From NCBI GenBank assembly GCA_048938295.1, contig JBHLMI010000005.1, positions 1 to 32,000 of the forward strand: a DNA stretch of 32,000 nucleotides, read 5' to 3'. Position numbers and translations under genes: made by a program. How positions within the stretch are numbered: position 1 is the stretch's first letter; every line of letters begins with the position of its first letter. This document shows, one piece after another, positions 4,976 to 13,946 of the stretch. This DNA comes from Promethearchaeota archaeon. GTDB taxonomy: Archaea > Asgardarchaeota > Hermodarchaeia > Hermodarchaeales > Hermodarchaeaceae. Under the pieces are notes generated by a model. That model searched no databases, was not told the origin of the DNA, and worked only from the letters and a program-made list of their open reading frames with translations.

Positions 4976-6670
4976 GTGGAGGGAATACACTTGACTCTAA
5001 CCAAAGCTGACAAAATCGTTGTAACGTGCGGCCTACCTTATGCAAACGGTACAGCTCACATCGGTCACTTGCGCACCTATATTCCTGGCGATGCCTACGT
5101 AAGGTACCTGAAACTCTTTGGCTATGATGTGATATTCTTTTGTGGATCCGATGCACATGGGGCACCCATTGAACTTGCAGCAGAGCAAGCTGGAATCACA
5201 CCTCAAAAGTTAGTTGAAAAATATCACACACACTTTGAAAACATCTTCAAGAAGCTGAATATTGGTGTTGATCTGTACGGGAATACAGAAGCCCCCTACC
5301 ATTACAAACGTGCTCAAACCATTATCCGTACCCTCGAGGAGAACGGGTATGTTGAAACCCGCGAAGTAGCTTTACCATACTGCAACACCTGTCAGACCTT
5401 CCTCGCTGACCGCTTCCTCGTTGGCACTTGCCCCTATTGTGGAGCGATAGCTCGTGGAGATGAATGTGACCAAGGGTGTCAGCGCTACCTTGATGCTGAT
5501 CAGTTGATCAACCCACGCTGTGTCACCTGTGGATCACCTGCCATCAAACGCCAGGCTCGACATCATTTCTTTAAGCTCTCAATGTTCACTGATTTTCTTA
5601 CGAAGTTTAATAAAAAATTGAAAGGTACCGCATTAGCTCGAAACTACGCTTTAGGTTGGATTCGGCAAGGACTTAAGGATTGGGGTATCTCCCGTAATTT
5701 GAAATGGGGAATCCCTTATCCGGGTGATGAGGATCTGGTTCTTTACGTATGGGCTGAAAACTATGCAGGGTACATCTCATTTACGGAGGAATGGGCCAGG
5801 CAAACTGGAGCTGATTGGGAAAATTATTGGATTCGAGATGGAAAAATCATCAACTTCATCGGTGCAGATATCGTATACCACCATGCAGTCTTTTGGCCTG
5901 CAATTCTCAAAGGAGTAAACTACAATACCGCCTATGCAATCGTTGCCAGCGGTATGGTCAAGGTTGAAGGGCATGGTCTCTCCAAGAGTCGCGGCTTCGT
6001 AATTGATATCGAAGAAGATTTTGTCAAACAGGGACTTGATTTGGATGCTGTGCGATACTACATTCTTTCATACACGGGATACACGAAGGACCTGGATTTT
6101 GTTTGGAAGGACTTTCAACTCAGAGTAAATAATGAACTTGTTGGCATTCTGGGTAACTACGCCTATCGTGTTCTCCTGTTCAATCACAAACATTTCAAAA
6201 AAATTCCGCAAGGAGCCCTAACAGATGAGATCACCAATCAGATTCGTGATACCATTAAAACGATTAAAAAAGCATTTCACAACTTCCGATTTAAAGAAGC
6301 TGCCGATGCTGCGATGCTCCTTGCTTCGTTTGGGAACACACTTTTCCAACAATGTGAACCCTGGAAGACGATCAAAGTAGAGCCTAACCGTGCCGAAAAT
6401 GACCTATATCAATGTCTCCAAGTATTGAAAGCCATCACAATTCTAATCGAACCTGTAATGCCAGCAATCTCTGAAAGGTTGTGGCAACAACTTGGTCAAG
6501 AAGGAAACATCCATGAGGTGAAGGTGGAAGAGTGTACAGAACCACTTTTTCCAGGCACGAAACTGCCCAAGCCAGAAGTGCTATTCACAAAGATACCTGA
6601 CGAAGCTGTTGCTGTATTAACTGTCGGATTGAACCAGCGTATTGAATCGGCGAGGGCAAAAGCCAAGTAA
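4976..6670 (+). CDS. metG: Methionyl-tRNA synthetase (no C-terminal OB/Trbp111 domain)
   Basis: GLPYANGTAHIGH (HIGH motif), GSDAHG, Zn-knuckle CxxC pairs, DWGISR, GADIVYHH, LSKSRG (KMSKS variant), NNELVGILGN anticodon-binding motif. Confidence 0.96.
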   Translation: MEGIHLTLTKADKIVVTCGLPYANGTAHIGHLRTYIPGDAYVRYLKLFGYDVIFFCGSDAHGAPIELAAEQAGITPQKLVEKYHTHFENIFKKLNIGVDLYGNTEAPYHYKRAQTIIRTLEENGYVETREVALPYCNTCQTFLADRFLVGTCPYCGAIARGDECDQGCQRYLDADQLINPRCVTCGSPAIKRQARHHFFKLSMFTDFLTKFNKKLKGTALARNYALGWIRQGLKDWGISRNLKWGIPYPGDEDLVLYVWAENYAGYISFTEEWARQTGADWENYWIRDGKIINFIGADIVYHHAVFWPAILKGVNYNTAYAIVASGMVKVEGHGLSKSRGFVIDIEEDFVKQGLDLDAVRYYILSYTGYTKDLDFVWKDFQLRVNNELVGILGNYAYRVLLFNHKHFKKIPQGALTDEITNQIRDTIKTIKKAFHNFRFKEAADAAMLLASFGNTLFQQCEPWKTIKVEPNRAENDLYQCLQVLKAITILIEPVMPAISERLWQQLGQEGNIHEVKVEECTEPLFPGTKLPKPEVLFTKIPDEAVAVLTVGLNQRIESARAKAK

Positions 6671-6689
6671 CTCTTTTCAGCATAATTTC

Positions 6690-6722
6690 TTAGCCTGTTG
6701 TCTAAACAACCTCTCATTATGC
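6690..6722 (+). repeat. 33-bp imperfect direct repeat, copy 1 (upstream of flavodoxin)
   Basis: ttagcctgttgtctaaacaacctctcattatgc; 28/33 identical to 7325-7357; contains GTTGT-N4-ACAAC. Confidence 0.85.
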
Positions 6723-6755
6723 TAATACTAAATTAAATAAAAAGCCCCCCTGAGC

Positions 6756-6763
6756 TATTTAAG
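6756..6763 (+). promoter_or_regulatory. Putative TATA box for a leaderless flavodoxin mRNA
   Basis: TATTTAAG centred about 27 nt upstream of ATG 6786. Confidence 0.35.
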
Positions 6764-6785
6764 CAGGTAATTAAGAATGGTGGCT

Positions 6786-7328
6786 ATGAAGATTTTAATT
6801 GCCTATTATAGTGAAACGGGGAATACTGCGCAAGTGGCGCAGGCGATGTATGAAGCGTTGTCAAAGGATCATGATGTAGTATTGATGACAGTGCAAGAGG
6901 TTTCTTTTGATCTCTTACTTGGTTTCGAGTTGGTGTTTTTGGGTGCAGCGGTCCATGATTCGGATTTAGCTAAGCCGTTGAAGCGGTTGTTGGAAGTTTT
7001 ACCCATGAATCCTTCTTTCAAGTTAGCGGGATTTTCAACACATGCTGTTTATGAGCCGGATGGCTCGTCGCACAAAGATGCATTGTATGAGCAGTGGGCG
7101 GGTCGATGTTTGCCCTCCTTTAAAGTTGCTTGTCGGGAAAAGAGCATTCAGTTTCTCGGTTATTTTCATTGTCAAGGAGTTCCCTCAGAGCCGATTGAAA
7201 GGTTTATTCATCGAGAAATCATTACATCCAAAGAGGAATGGAATGAATACTTACCTGAATTACGGAAGCACCCAACCCCAGAAGATTTACAGAACGCGAA
7301 AGATTTTGCACGCAAGATGATCAATTAG
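6786..7328 (+). CDS. Flavodoxin-family protein
   Basis: MKILIAYYSETGNTAQVAQAM FMN-binding loop, LVFLGAAV, LAGFSTH, FLGYFHCQG and C-terminal HPTPEDLQNAKDFA. The alternative start is 6777. Confidence 0.85.
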   Translation: MKILIAYYSETGNTAQVAQAMYEALSKDHDVVLMTVQEVSFDLLLGFELVFLGAAVHDSDLAKPLKRLLEVLPMNPSFKLAGFSTHAVYEPDGSSHKDALYEQWAGRCLPSFKVACREKSIQFLGYFHCQGVPSEPIERFIHREIITSKEEWNEYLPELRKHPTPEDLQNAKDFARKMIN

Positions 7329-7357
7329 CCTGTTGTTCACACAACCTCATATTATGC
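7325..7357 (+). repeat. 33-bp imperfect direct repeat, copy 2 (overlaps the flavodoxin stop codon)
   Basis: ttagcctgttgttcacacaacctcatattatgc; 28/33 identical to 6690-6722. Confidence 0.85.
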
Positions 7358-7429
7358 CACTCATATTAGTGGTATTCCAATAGTCGAAACATTCATCCCG
7401 CATTCTATTTGGAATCGGGAATAACGTTA

Positions 7430-7630
7430 ATGACGAAACTGATTTTACCTTTCAATCTCTTTATGATATGTTGAGGAATCATTCTGGTTAGTGGTAGAGC
7501 CTACCACGGAATCACTTCTAAGAGGAAGGAATGGTGGGTTCTTGAAAGTGCTGACCATCCTATTATGAATAGTGGAGAACACAAACAAGAACTATTTATT
7601 CAAACTATTACTTTCCTTGAAACCATCTAA
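7430..7630 (+). pseudogene. Remnant of an alpha/beta-hydrolase (esterase/lipase) C-terminus
   Basis: Manual translation: MTKLILPFNLFMIC*GIILVSGRAYHGITSKRKEWWVLESADHPIMNSGEHKQELFIQTITFLETI*. This resembles the carboxylesterase C-terminal pattern around the catalytic His. There is an in-frame TGA at 7472-7474 and the N-terminus is absent. Confidence 0.5.
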
Positions 7631-7773
7631 CTCAACCCTCTTCATCTGTTCCATCCCTTTTTTCGAATAAGTTAAACTCTATTTTTTTGGGCTCATTGCA
7701 ACTAAAGGATTTTATACGCTCGAAATACTGTCTTACCAGGCTTGCATAACTTAATGGAATGGAGAAAAAGATC

Positions 7774-8220
7774 ATGGGATTATTTGGTCGATTTAAAGCC
7801 CCCAAAGCGACAATCTCAGTAATGTTGAATAAGGATACGTACAGCCTTAATGAGCCCCTAACAGGGACCGTTAATGTGTCATCATCCGAAGAATTTGACG
7901 CCGATGAAGTTCGTCTTGAAATCTGGGTCAACGAATGGACCAAAGCGACCGAGAAGCAGGGTACGAAAGAAAAACCAATAACAGTAACCGCTCAACAAAA
8001 CAGCGTACTCCATCAAGGCAAGAATTCCATCGGAGGTCAAATGCAATTTACCGACGGTTTTAGCGACAGTATTGACTTCAGTATCCATTTACCTTCAGGA
8101 GTTCCCCCCACCTATCGAAGTCAAAATGCCCGAAATACCTGGATGATGAAAGGCGTAATTGCCGTTAAAGGCCGACCCGATATCACTAGCCACGACATGG
8201 AAGTTGTAATAACCTACTAG
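7774..8220 (+). CDS. Arrestin-N/Spo0M-like beta-sandwich protein
   Basis: ISVMLNKDTYSLNEPLTGTVNV (cf. y.pGe.v.G.v.l) and FSIHLPSGVPPTY...WMMKGVIAVKGRPD match the arrestin_N/Spo0M pattern. Start is 7774 (MGLF) or 7759. Confidence 0.65.
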   Translation: MGLFGRFKAPKATISVMLNKDTYSLNEPLTGTVNVSSSEEFDADEVRLEIWVNEWTKATEKQGTKEKPITVTAQQNSVLHQGKNSIGGQMQFTDGFSDSIDFSIHLPSGVPPTYRSQNARNTWMMKGVIAVKGRPDITSHDMEVVITY

Positions 8221-8278
8221 TGAACCCTCAAATTGTATCATTACAGGGCAACGTAACACGTCTCTCGTGAGACGAGAT

Positions 8279-8375
8279 CCAGATAAAGCAGTTGAGAAAT
8301 TTGGAACGGGTCTTAACCAACGCATTGAATCTGGGTGAGTAAGAGCCAAGTAACGCCGTTCAGCAAAATTTCTTA
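8279..8375 (+). pseudogene. Diverged relic copy of the metG 3' end plus downstream sequence
   Basis: Gap-free alignment to 6596-6692 with 67/97 nt identical. Translates PDKAVEKFGTGLNQRIESG*VRAK* versus metG PDEAVAVLTVGLNQRIESARAKAK*. Confidence 0.85.
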
Positions 8376-8405
8376 TTCGCGTTTTTCACTCCTACCTAGT
8401 GGAAA

Positions 8406-11400
8406 GTGGTGAATACTGTGGTTAGCGCTGATCCCTCAATACTTCTATCTGATATAACGAAGCTTCCCGCAAAACTCAAGCGGAAGCTGGACGCCCATGG
8501 GATTAATGATCTTGCACATCTTTTTTTGGCAGAGACAAAATTGCAGGACGCAGTCACATTAGCGACCAATACGGATCTTACAATTCGTGGGGCTCTTGAA
8601 GCCCGACAGATTGCTCGACGTTATTTTGAAACCATTTTAGCAGATATAACCGCCAAGCGCAAGGTTGAATCATTAGGATTATTATGGAAGATTCATTGGT
8701 TGCTAGGAGTTGTACCTGAGGGAGATTTCCGAAATGAGCTCATTGCGCTTGAGGCTTCAGCGATTGCGGCAATTCTTGAAGCTTTAGAAGTCATAGAGGC
8801 TTCGACAGTTGAACAAATCCTCCAGATACTGCTTCACCGCCTGCTCATTATTCCAAAAGTGACAATGAAGGCGGAGTTGACTCAACTTGTGGAATTTGCC
8901 GAGAAGTTTCAGCGGAGCTCCTTACTCGCCTACCAAACAACCAAAGCAAAGGATTCGATGATGGCATTAGCCGATGAGGATGATCCCACAAAGCAGGTTG
9001 TACTGATACGAAAACTCACAACCCATTGGAAGACTCTTCATAAGACAATGCAAGACCGCAGCCAGGAACGGGGAACCGTAATTGTAACAGCACTGCAGTC
9101 AACTGATGATCTAAGAGTGTTAGATATCAGCGAACAGCATTTGCAAGAACGCCTTCAACAAACCATGTCAACAAAGAAGCTGCGGCAATCCCAATTAAAG
9201 CACATCACGACTGCAATGAATGCCATGTTTGAACTCCGCGATGCCTACTCCACCGCCAAACTAGCCACGCGCGCGAGCCAGATATGGTTTGAACTGGCAC
9301 AAGGCAAATCTAGCAAGGCACTCGGAGACGATTTATTACGCAGTCTACGATTTGCACGTACCGCGATTTTCAATTATCGTGCACTTGACGATTTGAACAG
9401 AGCTGTCAAGCAGATTAATCATATTATCCTCTTATTAGGTGAGATCCCATTCGAACCTGCTGAACCCCTTGAGGAGGCCGTTACAAGTGCCTTCCAAACG
9501 TTAATCCGAACTATCCCACTCCTGGACCGTCCTGCAGACCAAGAATTCATCCTTCGAATCTCAAAACGGCTAGGCATCATCCAAACAAGGTTGATGCCCA
9601 AAATCGCAGCGCCTGAAGCCCAGTCGGCTTTGGCAAAACTCCAAATCGAATTCCAACAAACAGCACTAAAACAGCTACAACACCTTGGTGCAACATCTGA
9701 GACCTATCAACCGCTCACCCAAGAGCTCATAGAAGCCCAACTGCGCCTTGTCGACGTTGCCCCAGAAGATGAAAAAGACATTCTGTTGAACGCAGCCGCT
9801 GAACATGCGACCCAACTAATACCTGAGATCCGCCAAACAACGGAAATCGACGAGAATAATCTTGAACTTATTTCCCGCCTTGTACAGCAACTTGCACAGC
9901 GACCAAAGGAAACTTTGAGTGATTCAGCACATCGCCTTAGGGAAAAAAGTCACCAACTCAACGAACAACTGTATTTCCAAACCAAAGACCCCCAAATACG
10001 GGCTCAACTCGCCCTGCAACTCTTACTCTCAAAGGTCTCCCCGGATCCTTCAGGGAGGGTAACCATAACCTTTCCTAGCAAAGATTTGGACAAACTCGAA
10101 GATTATGCGACAACAGCGATGTTAGCCCAGGTAAAAGGTCGACAACAAGTAAAAGCTTTGAAAGCGGGTTCACTGCTGGTCTGGATTCTAATACAGCGGT
10201 TAAGTGAAACAACAGAGAGCAAGGAGTTGCATAAATTAAGGGATGATGCACAAGAATTTGCAGAACAGACGCTTGCGTTTATGCCTCCATCAAACGAGTT
10301 GACTGGCGAGGCGTATCCTTTCGCCTTCCTCCTACTCCGTAATGTCAACGCCTTAGCTTACGAAGAGCAGCCCGCTGAGGAGACAAAATGGGAACAGCTG
10401 TTAACACAAAGTGAACAACTCGCCCAAACTCTGGCTAAAGCTGCAGCGCTGAAGAAGGACACACGCAACGGGGTTCTAGCTTTAAGTGCTGCAGGAACTG
10501 CTACAGCTAAACTCGCAACGCTTACCTCCGACCGCAGTTCACAAACTCGATTACTCCGGAGGGCGGCAACCCAGTTACAAAAAGCACTCGAAGTTGTAGC
10601 CAGTGATGAAGATTCTGCAGATATTGAGGCCGTTTTGTCTCAATATACTCAGCTCATGCGAGCCCGCTTATCTGTAACCCCAGCACTCTCTGCGCAGATT
10701 CCACTTTTTGAGGAGTGGAATCAAACATTCAAGGAGGGAATTGACGCGCTCCGAAGTAGAGGTGCTGATGATAGCGCAAACAAGCTGCAAGCGTCACTGA
10801 TACTAAACACGCAGGTACCGCTTGCATTCACCCGCCTGAGCAAAGAAAAAGCAACCCTTGATTCGGTTCGACGGAAGCTGCTAGAAATGCTCCGTGAAGT
10901 CGGTCAAATCGGGTCCGAGGATCAGGCCAAGTTGGCTCAGCAGCTAGAACGCCGTTGGACCTTCCAATTAGGTGACAACTCGCTATTGGACTCAGGATAT
11001 CGCCTTGAAGGTGGTGAAACTGGTTTCACGTTAGCTGATGAGCATTTTCGAATCAGTCTTCAGGTTGAGCTTGAAATTGCCATCGATGGTCGTGCTTTAC
11101 GGAAAATGACAACCTTTCCCTATCTTCGCCCATCAACAAAGTCCAACGATCTAATCTGGTACGACAAGAACCCCATCTTATCCAGTACTTATGAAAATGA
11201 CCAGCTCCAAACTTGGCTTACCCTTCTTGACCCTAGCGAGAATCATGTCTCTATTGGTTTCTGGCTAGTACCCTCCGAGGACACTAAGACCACTTTGACT
11301 TTACAAATTCTGGGCACCGAAGCCATGTCTCAGGGTGCGGAAGGGGTAATGGTTCAGCTTACTGGTTCACAATTAGAAATACCACGACAACCAGCAGTTG

Positions 11401-11495
11401 CGGAACGAAGGGATACAAAGGGGATCCTCATCTATGAGTCTAAACTTACAGTAGGATTTCCTGATACAATTCGCTTGAATCTACGAATTGCTTAA
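8406..11495 (+). CDS. Large hypothetical protein: N-terminal HhH-like domain, long helical region, beta-rich C-terminus
   Basis: 1029-aa uninterrupted ORF. The N-terminal ITKLPAKLKRKLDAHGINDLAHLFLA...ARQIAR resembles the RadA-N/HhH_5 pattern. L/A/Q/E-rich amphipathic helices follow to about aa 860, then alternating hydrophobic strands. Confidence 0.75.
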   Translation: MVNTVVSADPSILLSDITKLPAKLKRKLDAHGINDLAHLFLAETKLQDAVTLATNTDLTIRGALEARQIARRYFETILADITAKRKVESLGLLWKIHWLLGVVPEGDFRNELIALEASAIAAILEALEVIEASTVEQILQILLHRLLIIPKVTMKAELTQLVEFAEKFQRSSLLAYQTTKAKDSMMALADEDDPTKQVVLIRKLTTHWKTLHKTMQDRSQERGTVIVTALQSTDDLRVLDISEQHLQERLQQTMSTKKLRQSQLKHITTAMNAMFELRDAYSTAKLATRASQIWFELAQGKSSKALGDDLLRSLRFARTAIFNYRALDDLNRAVKQINHIILLLGEIPFEPAEPLEEAVTSAFQTLIRTIPLLDRPADQEFILRISKRLGIIQTRLMPKIAAPEAQSALAKLQIEFQQTALKQLQHLGATSETYQPLTQELIEAQLRLVDVAPEDEKDILLNAAAEHATQLIPEIRQTTEIDENNLELISRLVQQLAQRPKETLSDSAHRLREKSHQLNEQLYFQTKDPQIRAQLALQLLLSKVSPDPSGRVTITFPSKDLDKLEDYATTAMLAQVKGRQQVKALKAGSLLVWILIQRLSETTESKELHKLRDDAQEFAEQTLAFMPPSNELTGEAYPFAFLLLRNVNALAYEEQPAEETKWEQLLTQSEQLAQTLAKAAALKKDTRNGVLALSAAGTATAKLATLTSDRSSQTRLLRRAATQLQKALEVVASDEDSADIEAVLSQYTQLMRARLSVTPALSAQIPLFEEWNQTFKEGIDALRSRGADDSANKLQASLILNTQVPLAFTRLSKEKATLDSVRRKLLEMLREVGQIGSEDQAKLAQQLERRWTFQLGDNSLLDSGYRLEGGETGFTLADEHFRISLQVELEIAIDGRALRKMTTFPYLRPSTKSNDLIWYDKNPILSSTYENDQLQTWLTLLDPSENHVSIGFWLVPSEDTKTTLTLQILGTEAMSQGAEGVMVQLTGSQLEIPRQPAVAERRDTKGILIYESKLTVGFPDTIRLNLRIA

Positions 11496-12158: not shown

Positions 12159-13946
12159 TTAGAGATTCAATTGTTTGAGACATGATTCCGTAGGTTGACC
12201 AGTTTCATCCCACCCACGAAGGCGGTAATATTCGGGAAGCATCTCTTTAAGATGAGTAACGCGGTTACGGGATCCACCCTCTGGTAAAGGTTTTGAGAAA
12301 CGTGGAGGTAGGCAGTCATCTTTCGCTGAAAAACCTTCTCGAATATTGAATAATCGTTCGAGAGTCCAGATTCTCTCACCAATTTGAAGAAACTCGTTGC
12401 CAGATATCTTTAGCGAGGTGGCAGCGGAGAGTAGATCAGCATAATCTTCCACGCTAAAAGCGAACGTGGTAAATCGGCATAGAACAAGCGAATCCATTGC
12501 CGCAGAGAGATTTTGAAACAGAATCACAAGTCCAGCTTTTCCTTCAACACGATCGCGATCAACAAGGACAGGCGATCCCAATATTTCAGGCCCTATAAGA
12601 TAGGCCCGTAAATGGCATCCCCCACGGTTGGATGTGGCATTAGCGAGAGCGTGTCCCTGAACTCCTCTAAGATCGTATGCAGGCAGTTCCATTCCCTTTA
12701 CCTGCATTGCTAGTTGGGGAGCATTATACCGGATAGCCAAACTCTTGGAACCTTGCCCAAGTTCCTTTCCCAATCCACGAGCATGGGCAATATCATCGAT
12801 GAGGTTGAGCAACTCTGCAGTTTTTGTAAATTCAAGTTTAGATTGGAGGTGACCTTTCTGCACAAGCTCCATCGCACATCCAATGGTGCTGCCCACGGAA
12901 ATTGTGTCTATACCTAGCTCATTACACCGATGATTAGCAGTGGTAATCCATTCGAGATCATTGATCCCACACTGAGGCCCTAAAGCCCAAATAGTCTCAT
13001 ACTCTGGACCACCTACTTCAATTCCTTGAACTTGAGAGATTCTGCCACAGCCAATTGGACAACCGAAACAATGGTACCGCTTGAGGAAGAATCGTTCAAG
13101 TAGCTTTTCCCCAGAAACACCTTCGGCATCGTTGAAAGTACCCTCCTGAAAGTTGTACGTCGGCAGCATCCCGAATTCATTGATGAGGTTGACTAGCACT
13201 GCCGTCCCATACACAGGTAAAGAATTGTTCGTGATGGAATCTTTCTTGATAAGGCGGCGCGTCCGGTTAACGACAATGTCGAGTTTTTCAGGGTCATTTA
13301 TTGAAATTTGTTTAGTGCCCAGAATTACGATGGCTTTCAGATGCTTTGCACCCATGACGGCACCAACACCACCTCGACCAGCTGCGCGATGCTTGTCAGT
13401 CATGATTGCAGCAAGTTTAACCTGGTTCTCTCCACCAGGACCGATGCATGCCACTTGGGCTTTAGGATCAGTTTCATCAAGAAGATAATCTGTGGAGGGA
13501 CTTACCTCTTGACCCCACACATCCTTCGCTGACCGAAATTCAACGTCGTCGTCATTAATCCAGAGATAAGTGGGTGATTTTGCACGCCCCTCGAACACTA
13601 AAGCGGCATAGCCTGCTCGTCGTAGCTGGGGACCGAAGTGTCCTCCACTGTTGGAGTCCAAAATAGTACCAGTTAGTGGTGATTTGGTAATTACAGCGAA
13701 CCGCCCTCCAGTTGGTGCAGCTGAAGCTGTAAGGGGACCAACGGCAAACACCAGAAGATTCTCAGGGGCTAGCGGAGAAACGGCGGGGGTTACTTGATCA
13801 TAGACCAGTTTTACGCCTATACCACGACCACCTAGATATTGGGTAAAAAGCGCAGGTGTTAGTTCTTGTTGTTTCACCGTTTGGTTAGTAAGCGAAATCC
13901 GAAGCAGTTTGGTATCAGAATATGATTGTGTGTTCTCATCTGTCAT
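12159..13946 (-). CDS. aor: Tungsten-containing aldehyde:ferredoxin oxidoreductase
   Basis: LGGRGIG, KSPLTG, RAAGRGGVGAVMGAKHLKAI, 4Fe-4S CFGCPIGC plus DSLVLC, GPEYET, NELGIDTIS, RGGCHL and YYRLRGWD. Confidence 0.95.
   Translation of the reverse strand: MTDENTQSYSDTKLLRISLTNQTVKQQELTPALFTQYLGGRGIGVKLVYDQVTPAVSPLAPENLLVFAVGPLTASAAPTGGRFAVITKSPLTGTILDSNSGGHFGPQLRRAGYAALVFEGRAKSPTYLWINDDDVEFRSAKDVWGQEVSPSTDYLLDETDPKAQVACIGPGGENQVKLAAIMTDKHRAAGRGGVGAVMGAKHLKAIVILGTKQISINDPEKLDIVVNRTRRLIKKDSITNNSLPVYGTAVLVNLINEFGMLPTYNFQEGTFNDAEGVSGEKLLERFFLKRYHCFGCPIGCGRISQVQGIEVGGPEYETIWALGPQCGINDLEWITTANHRCNELGIDTISVGSTIGCAMELVQKGHLQSKLEFTKTAELLNLIDDIAHARGLGKELGQGSKSLAIRYNAPQLAMQVKGMELPAYDLRGVQGHALANATSNRGGCHLRAYLIGPEILGSPVLVDRDRVEGKAGLVILFQNLSAAMDSLVLCRFTTFAFSVEDYADLLSAATSLKISGNEFLQIGERIWTLERLFNIREGFSAKDDCLPPRFSKPLPEGGSRNRVTHLKEMLPEYYRLRGWDETGQPTESCLKQLNL

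Follow-up and report, generated by a model that had tools for sequence, protein, structure and literature searches.

Eukaryotes have no closer known relatives than the Asgard archaea, a group whose ways of acquiring and rearranging accessory genes are poorly understood. We describe here a cassette array located behind metG, the gene for class I methionyl-tRNA synthetase (MetRS), in a Promethearchaeota archaeon (assembly GCA_048938295.1, hereafter G000), of which a window of 32,000 nucleotides (contig JBHLMI010000005.1, positions 1 to 32,000) was analysed. Several described systems resemble this array in part. In integrons, the integrase IntI is a tyrosine recombinase with an IntI-specific insertion, its attC sites vary in sequence, have conserved R''/L''/L'/R' boxes (RYYYAAC ... 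GTTRRRY) and act as a folded strand, and the cassettes are mostly co-oriented, each with a single open reading frame (ORF) and its site. Integrative mobile elements exploiting Xer (IMEX), such as CTX phage, and the pdif modules of Acinetobacter plasmids have no integrase and use the host Xer recombinase, and free-standing homing endonuclease genes with a C-terminal duplication of the host gene are known from fungal mitochondria as mORFs. Ghaly et al. 2022 (PMC9668308) reported integrons with IntI and attC from Archaea, Asgard archaea among them, and Xer/dif sites have an 11-6-11 layout (PMC2958812). The integrase-bearing integrated mobile genetic elements (iMGEs) of Thaumarchaeota, as well as casposons, integrate in the 3'-distal part of protein genes and re-use their site in tandem (PMC6563490), and the iMGEs of the Asgard Atabeyarchaeia have an 11-bp AT-rich att motif, AATTAACTTAT (PMC11529989). 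Our limited search of the literature on gene gain in Asgard archaea returned only integrase-bearing elements and classical integrons.

At the metG locus, downstream of an essential gene, cassettes of one or two genes turn over at strain level at a single exact position where no integrase was found, and array cassettes also occur in other variable regions of the genomes. We propose, with about even confidence, that the 1.7-kb stretch between metG and the next conserved gene consists of two cassettes of a genus-wide, integrase-less array, exchanged by site-specific recombination in trans at TTTCTTA/ (the slash marks the junction), with a decayed copy of the metG end as passenger. Given that this position is occupied by different genes, or by none, in related species and that no integrase was found, the array looks like a little-known way of collecting genes. 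If a host enzyme is responsible, this would be a new gene-capture mechanism in archaea. The foreign metG-tail relics provide a means to trace cassette movement between species.

The metG repeat and the DNA between its copies

The insert is bounded by a direct repeat of the metG 3' end. Positions 6596-6692, which comprise the last 24 metG codons, the stop and 22 nt downstream, align without gaps to 8279-8375 (offset 1683, 67/97 identical, 80% identity over a core of 61 nt), with a local alignment score of 62 against 20.1 +/- 2.2 (maximum 28) in 100 shuffles. Seven codons are identical, 8 differ synonymously and 10 non-synonymously, the differences show an excess at third positions (6/7/13 at codon positions 1/2/3), and copy 2 contains a single in-frame TGA at 8336-8338 while keeping its stop at 8351-8353. 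A first-pass annotation of the window had described this ungapped 97-nt repeat with its eight synonymous codons and one nonsense codon, all of which we reproduced; in that finding it had missed a second repeat (6690-6722 versus 7325-7357, 85% identical), which frames the flavodoxin gene. The possibility of a misassembly at 8279, under which the earlier reading would have fallen, was also considered. Contigs of another sample together cover 6000-9000 at about 100%, a single one extending over 7742-9000, and a third run bridges 8191-8701; since two of these contigs cross 8279, there is no misassembly at that position.

The features of the locus are listed below, U being the 43-nt site that divides the cassettes, and G001 the genome of a sister species.

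4976..6670, plus strand: metG, class I methionyl-tRNA synthetase, 564 aa (Pfam PF09334, 1.5e-135; PF19303)
6596-6670, plus strand: repeat copy 1, the functional, apparently native metG tail (24 codons and stop), which groups with the G001 tail and matches the metG body tree
6680..6722, plus strand: site U, full copy (GCATAAT-TTCTTA/GCC-TGTTGTCTAAACAAC-CTCTC-ATTATGC), with the left junction of the insert between 6692 and 6693
6777..7328, plus strand: flavodoxin gene, 183 aa, cargo of cassette 1 (Pfam PF12641, 5e-12)
7325..7357, plus strand: second copy of U, right part only (TTA/GCCTGTTGTTCACACAACCTCATATTATGC), an nhmmer match to profile positions 136-180 and the boundary between cassettes 1 and 2
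7462..8278, plus strand: cassette 2, made of a non-coding stretch, a degenerate ORF end, the arrestin gene and its 3' flank
7475-7630: the degenerate ORF end, no Pfam match at E<=10
7759-8220, plus strand: arrestin-N/Spo0M-like gene (Pfam PF00339, 3e-6; PF07070, 3e-5)
8279..8353, plus strand: metG-tail relic, 24 codons and stop, in-frame TGA at 8336-8338, right end of cassette 2
8354..8375, plus strand: post-stop core copy 2 (CGCCGTTCAGCAAAATTTCTTA), left half of U only, with the right junction between 8375 and 8376
8376..8405, plus strand: native flank, which is probably the promoter region for the 1029-aa gene (TTCGCGTTTTTCAC...CTAGTG), clade-specific and kept in empty-site genomes
8406..11495, plus strand: conserved 1029-aa gene, which flanks the array on its right as part of the backbone; its synteny with metG holds throughout the congeners and the sister genus

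Pfam thus supports the flavodoxin and the arrestin-like gene that the first-pass annotation had placed between the copies, whereas its "hydrolase remnant" is the degenerate ORF end above, a putative identity that goes by its look. The stop codon of the flavodoxin gene (TAG, 7326-7328) overlaps the next TTA/GCC junction, and this gene is absent from the G001 array. Core copy 2 has the base diagnostic of relics (GCAAAAT versus GCATAAT in functional copies). The 1029-aa gene gave no Pfam or NCBIfam match.

We compared the locus with 14 congeners and 4 genomes of a sister genus. The order of the backbone genes, namely a 407-aa gene, a Ras GTPase gene, metG, the 1029-aa gene, a 206-aa gene and an aldehyde:ferredoxin oxidoreductase gene, is constant in this set, and the gap between the metG stop and the 1029-aa start varies as follows.

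G003: 52 nt
G015 and G018 (sister genus): 70-71 nt
G011: 294 nt
G007: 376 nt
G010: 1175 nt
G000 (window): 1735 nt
G009: 2590 nt
G001: 5667 nt
G012: 7122 nt

The expectation that metG should abut the 1029-aa gene in relatives with an empty site, put forward in the first-pass annotation, is thus borne out in G003, G015 and G018, and because of these three empty sites, in one congener and two sister-genus genomes, the repeat bounds inserted accessory DNA. With att-like direct repeats on both sides and the core ATAATTTCTTA at both junctions, the insert has the configuration of an integrated element. The cargo of the islands is unrelated from one genome to another: it includes a pyridoxal phosphate (PLP) enzyme, Flavodoxin_2, two DUF4760 genes, PHO4, an acyltransferase, a 774-aa metalloprotease-like protein, an old yellow enzyme (OYE) reductase, a split beta-lactamase and pieces of ABC transporters. 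The units measure 0.6-3 kb, contain one or two ordinary genes each and are of mixed orientation, with flavodoxin, arrestin and DUF4760 genes on the plus strand and PALP, Flavodoxin_2, PHO4, acyltransferase and 774-aa protein genes on the minus strand.

A few side observations concern the genomes and their metG genes. The presence of a Ras-family GTPase gene beside metG agrees with an Asgard affiliation. One genome of the same phylum has two tandem MetRS genes (G035:C5:5709-9057) and another has one in-frame TGA in metG (G023:C49:21659-23320); the metG gene of G007 (L044, C14) is broken by a run of N; and genomes of one GTDB genus (L062-L066) are publicly labelled Hermodarchaeota, Promethearchaeota and Thorarchaeota.

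Site U, its junctions and the metG-tail relics

Site U (43 nt, GCATAAT-TTCTTA/GCC-TGTTGTTCAAACAAC-CTCTC-ATTATGC) divides the cassettes, often with a metG-tail relic just before it, and is the common unit of the arrays (GCATAAT-TTCTTA/GCC-GTTGTTCAAACAAC-CTCTC-ATTATGC). Scans with a profile made of the metG tail, the following 22 nt and the next 90 nt show that the islands are arrays. In all, 11 genomes or contigs yielded 20 genomic copies of U, to which one read-derived variant is added, the mean column identity over the 21 copies being 78%. U is better conserved across clades than the adjoining native DNA. The sequence to the left of TTA/ is clade-specific and that to the right is common across clades. 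At the empty site and at the junctions beside the 1029-aa gene, only the left part of U is present, ATAATTTCTTA; the empty site of G003 reads …CAGCATAATTTCTTA/TTGTCGTTTTGC…. The core and the native flank form, as read by eye, an imperfect palindrome (GCAWAAT-N11-GTTTTGC) centred on the junction. Part of the flank (TTA-N5-GTTTTGC) persists in the sister genus as well, although no array is present there.

The junctions are precise to the base. In G000, G012 and G006 TTTCTTA is the exact end of the repeat, with 30-31 nt left to the start of the 1029-aa gene, and three unrelated types of cassette end, each in at least two divergent genomes, meet the native flank exactly at TTTCTTA/: the relic type in these three genomes, a second type in G009 and G011, and a third in G001 and G007. 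The G001 array consists of the functional tail with U followed by relic plus U, core plus U and relic plus U, the G012 array of U, relic plus U and a terminal relic, and in G006 a relic with an intact reading frame adjoins the 1029-aa gene. The diagnostic base of the core (GCAAAAT in relics, GCATAAT in functional copies) is never mosaic, and the crossovers must consequently lie within the last ~9 nt, past the stop codon.

Outside metG arrays, U occurs on contig C2 of G011 with ~20 nt of metG tail and the stop attached, on contig C28 of G012, and beside htrA in L061 and L063; the G011 C2 island, which carries this metG-tail unit, contains no relic of the neighbouring cupin gene. Other identities of U were considered. 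Searches with Rfam (five loci, E<=1) and for tRNAs (nine loci) found nothing that would make it a known RNA or tRNA fragment, and the reverse strand, which reads ..HNERLFEQQAKKLC followed by a stop, has upstream stops in most copies and is rejected as a conserved ORF. The site of the htrA arrays, with the core TACTCACAAA, is unrelated to U, and this core is absent from the metG arrays, including that of the window. Separately, the G012 island (L033, C11) contains an element of 53-95 nt (…GGTCTTGGAATCACCTAGTCCA…) in two direct copies and one inverted copy (7305-7357, 7865-7959 and 13404-13498); it lies downstream of U copies and looks either like a miniature inverted-repeat transposable element or like a module that small membrane-protein genes have in common upstream.

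The relics have a single origin. In a tree of metG tails, the five relics (G000, two in G001, G006 and G012) form one clade (support 98/96), and grouping a relic with the functional tail of its own genome was rejected by the approximately unbiased test for G000 (p-AU 6e-6) and G006 (6e-13), though not for G012 (0.14). The tree of functional tails agrees with that of the metG body: in the latter, G001 is the sister of G000 and G004 comes next, the "upper" clade to which they belong also takes in G012, G009 and G014, and G010, G002 and G006 make up a clade apart. The tail tree, suggested in the first-pass annotation as a check, thus places the functional copy with the host lineage, that of G000 grouping with the tail of its sister species G001, and the relic in a clade common to four genomes. 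The relic of G000 is 82% identical to the functional tail of G012, 69% to its own tail and 88-90% to the relics of other genomes. In G006 the relic is foreign: it is of the upper-clade type, the working tail matches those of the relatives G002 and G005, the 30-nt flank is like that of G010 and G011, and the switch from foreign to native DNA falls exactly at TTTCTTA/.

The first-pass annotation had concluded from the synonymous differences that both copies evolved as functional metG termini. For the relic lineage this holds, as the G006 relic and the G012 functional tail differ by 6 synonymous and 3 non-synonymous codons (2/2/6 by position), but relics compared with each other are now unconstrained (2 synonymous and 8 non-synonymous codons, 4/4/3 by position). 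These patterns fit a relic lineage that would have split from a G012-like functional tail under coding constraint and then decayed freely.

The cassettes themselves change place and company. The arrestin cassette with its relic is last in G000, third of four in G001 and a stump in G012, where ~75 nt behind U correspond to the last ~15 nt of the gene and ~60 nt of flank. On a contig of a related strain from run X5, which belongs to another study, the metG pieces are 76-81% identical to those of the window and the arrestin cassette with its relic 95%; on the same contig, 6721-7468 (the flavodoxin cassette) is replaced by 1427 other bases, and a second X5 contig keeps the flavodoxin. In run X9, another U follows the relic core. 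The first cassette of G001 (PALP) is 90% identical to a segment of contig C66 of G000 and 89% to a segment of contig C42 of G012, both in mosaic regions. The C66 region (39000-49000, L067), which has the PALP cassette in common with the G001 metG array, is a 10-kb mosaic whose segments fall on at least three different contigs or far-apart positions in G001, and likewise in G004 and G012, and ~70 nt of it (L067 5735-5806) recur on C42 of G012; it is probably another cassette array.

Cassette 2 of G000 is 92.7% identical to 10234-11025 of G001. Between these two genomes the relics are 88-90% and an ordinary intergenic region 90% identical, values at which vertical and horizontal descent of the cassettes are not separable. 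The number of synonymous substitutions per site (dS) between them is 0.15 for the arrestin gene (7759-8220 versus L032 10533-10991), 0.39 for metG, 0.32 for the 1029-aa gene and 0.24 for the Ras gene; the low value of the arrestin gene, which is small, may reflect a more recent exchange of the cassette.

Possible routes of cassette exchange

In our working model, cassettes would enter and leave the array, between metG and the 1029-aa gene, at a fixed point, the TTA/ of ATAATTTCTTA, 22 nt past the metG stop at the centre of the imperfect palindrome. A circular or incoming cassette would bear the full 43-nt U, and its recombination with the chromosomal half-site would leave U at the metG-proximal end and the half-site at the distal end; the predicted circle junction joins relic-AATTTCTTA directly to GCCTGTTGT. 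The relic would stem from a single capture of the functional tail of a G012-like lineage and would since then have been carried between arrays and species while decaying, the resident metG tail staying in service and a putative recombinase acting in trans.

The absence of an integrase from the window, stated in the first-pass annotation, extends to the contig, which has no PF00589 match; the two matches of this genome are on contigs C32 and C33. The C32 tyrosine recombinase (313 aa) passes the XerA model (262.7 > 220) and fails that of the integron integrase (TIGR02249, 154 < 265), and XerA is the only genus-wide tyrosine recombinase that we found. No integrase, nuclease or other element gene was present in ~30 kb of island DNA scanned, no Pfam nuclease match in any slot, and no integrase or backbone genes of their own in the islands of G000, G001, G002, G005, G006, G009, G010, G012, G014 and L060. 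A search for an integrase-bearing element with a metG 3' fragment, which the earlier annotation had called for, came back empty, virus contigs included: these contain no U or genuine metG tail, and the looser pattern matches in them were discarded as chance (no palindrome, no MetRS similarity, ~6 chance matches estimated for the tail pattern).

Three further observations were made on the side. The C33 gene (C33:7137-8465; L049 1096-2427, minus strand) encodes a 443-aa tyrosine recombinase, is found in 0/18 other genomes of the family and probably marks a strain-specific integrated element. A 377-aa ORF with LAGLIDADG-looking motifs and no Pfam match is convergent with the actin 3' end in G000 (C18:10202-11332; L056 297-1430), where the actin gene lies in two parts at the ends of contigs C9 and C18. 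The GC skew of the 108-kb contig was uninformative and gave no evidence that the locus is a replication terminus.

Several points weigh against site-specific recombination in trans. No recombinase is linked to the site, and no circular or excised form of a cassette was seen. U does not have the 11-6-11 layout of Xer/dif sites, and its palindrome shows covariation and pair counts no higher than shuffle controls; one variant (GTGATT..AATCAC, run X9) retains it. Not all boundaries lie at the core: the PALP segment of G001 joins the relic via a 3-nt microhomology (CCA) and the U extension at an arbitrary point, and the arrestin homology in G000 begins ~105 nt after U, off the core. Vertical descent accounts for everything seen in the G000-G001 pair, and all the genomes are metagenome-assembled genomes. 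Finally, ATAATTTCTTA may be part of the promoter of the 1029-aa gene, the precise junctions then arising from short-homology recombination.

This last thought leads to an enzyme-free hotspot, which we consider rather unlikely. Whole islands would be exchanged or grow through homologous recombination, both in the core genes on either side and within the repeated tail and U units, and new genes would be captured by homology-facilitated illegitimate recombination, U and ATAATTTCTTA being regulatory DNA that gives short homology. The CCA junction and the boundaries off the core, the failure to find a recombinase, the presence of the PALP segment in different mosaic regions (G000 C66 and G012 C42), and the location of ATAATTTCTTA 31 nt upstream of the 1029-aa start, with part of the flank kept in the array-free sister genus, would all be at home in such a hotspot. 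However, crossovers across the ~120-nt tail homology should yield mosaic tails and none are seen, three unrelated cassette ends halt at the same base, U is conserved across clades above the adjacent native DNA, and 11-13 bp are very short for homologous recombination.

The model of the first-pass annotation, which we regard as improbable, invokes an integrase element whose attP carried its own metG 3' end: after a crossover in the coding region, the incoming end would have replaced the resident one, which became the relic, and the integrase was later lost. Archaeal elements do integrate in the 3'-distal part of protein-coding genes and re-use their sites in tandem (PMC6563490), a grouping of the G012 relic with its own genome is not rejected, and because the tail tree does not order relics and upper-clade functional tails at that depth, a founding replacement may have taken place in an upper-clade ancestor. 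The functional tails nevertheless follow the gene body and group with the sister species; the foreign copy in both G006 and the X5 strain is the relic, beside a native working tail; the junctions lie past the stop codon; and neither an integrase nor a remnant of one was found in any island or on a virus contig with U or a metG tail. Since foreign DNA turns native at TTTCTTA/, downstream of the stop, and the X5 cassette is far closer to that of the window than is the metG gene, the proposed direction should probably be reversed, the relic being, to judge from these sequences, the passenger end of a mobile cassette rather than a displaced resident tail. The same relation between tails tells against a homing endonuclease that would insert at the gene end with a resistant tail and displace the old one ("cut and rescue"), since a native working tail with a foreign relic is the reverse of its prediction. 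Stacked tail relics are the footprint expected from such an endonuclease and the actin-locus ORF lies in the same genome, but the family of this ORF has at most one full-length copy per genome, in 5/15 congeners and never at metG, where no homing endonuclease was seen in any genome examined and a tblastn search with the ORF against all metG islands returned nothing; as no slot has a Pfam nuclease either, we find this explanation very improbable. Had the metG end been duplicated in tandem within this genome and the copies then diverged, without any DNA from elsewhere, direct repeats in the same orientation as observed would result, but this reading is refuted, with next to no probability left to it, by the rejected own-tail grouping of the G000 relic, the empty sites in relatives and the closer identity of that relic to other relics than to its own tail.

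Comparison with known systems of gene capture

The metG array has the layout of known systems but fails their defining tests, that is, an integrase within the unit, IntI with attC, or a crossover inside the gene. Like archaeal iMGEs, it sits at the 3' end of a housekeeping gene with direct repeats that include the gene tail, a short AT-rich core, empty sites and re-use of the site. Unlike them, its units of 0.6-3 kb contain one or two ordinary genes and no integrase, replication or virus gene, and the crossover lies past the stop codon, so that metG needs no repair and the tail copy is a passenger instead of the working end. The stacked, decayed copies of the gene tail with accessory DNA between them recall mORF-type endonucleases, but no endonuclease gene is present at metG in the genomes examined, and the working tail is native.

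With integrons and clusters of attC sites lacking integron integrases (CALINs), the array shares small stacked cassettes, imperfectly palindromic sites, a recombinase outside the cassettes and an order that differs between close relatives. It departs from integrons in several respects: there is no IntI beside it, XerA being the only strong match; U is conserved in sequence, has by inspection no GTTRRRY/RYYYAAC boxes, and its pair counts are not above those of shuffles; and the orientation of the cassettes is mixed, most of the site is at the proximal end of the cassette, and the boundaries carry gene-tail relics. We tentatively raise the possibility, more doubtful than probable at present, of a genome-wide trade in cassettes in Hermodarchaeota without integron machinery, in which a host enzyme (XerA or an unrecognised recombinase) would move single-gene cassettes via palindromic sites like U between anchors (metG, and htrA in L061 and L063) and between species, dragging pieces of the anchor genes along as relics. 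If this were true, the relics would be a readable record of the past anchors of each cassette.

The comparison with IMEX and pdif modules brings out both sides. The geometry of U (7-31-7 with a nested palindrome, and 7-11-7 for the half-site) differs from the general 11-6-11 layout, and the genus's own dif was not located. The organisation is nonetheless that of integrase-less modules that are bounded by putative sites for a host recombinase and accumulate in tandem, XerA being a candidate recombinase here.

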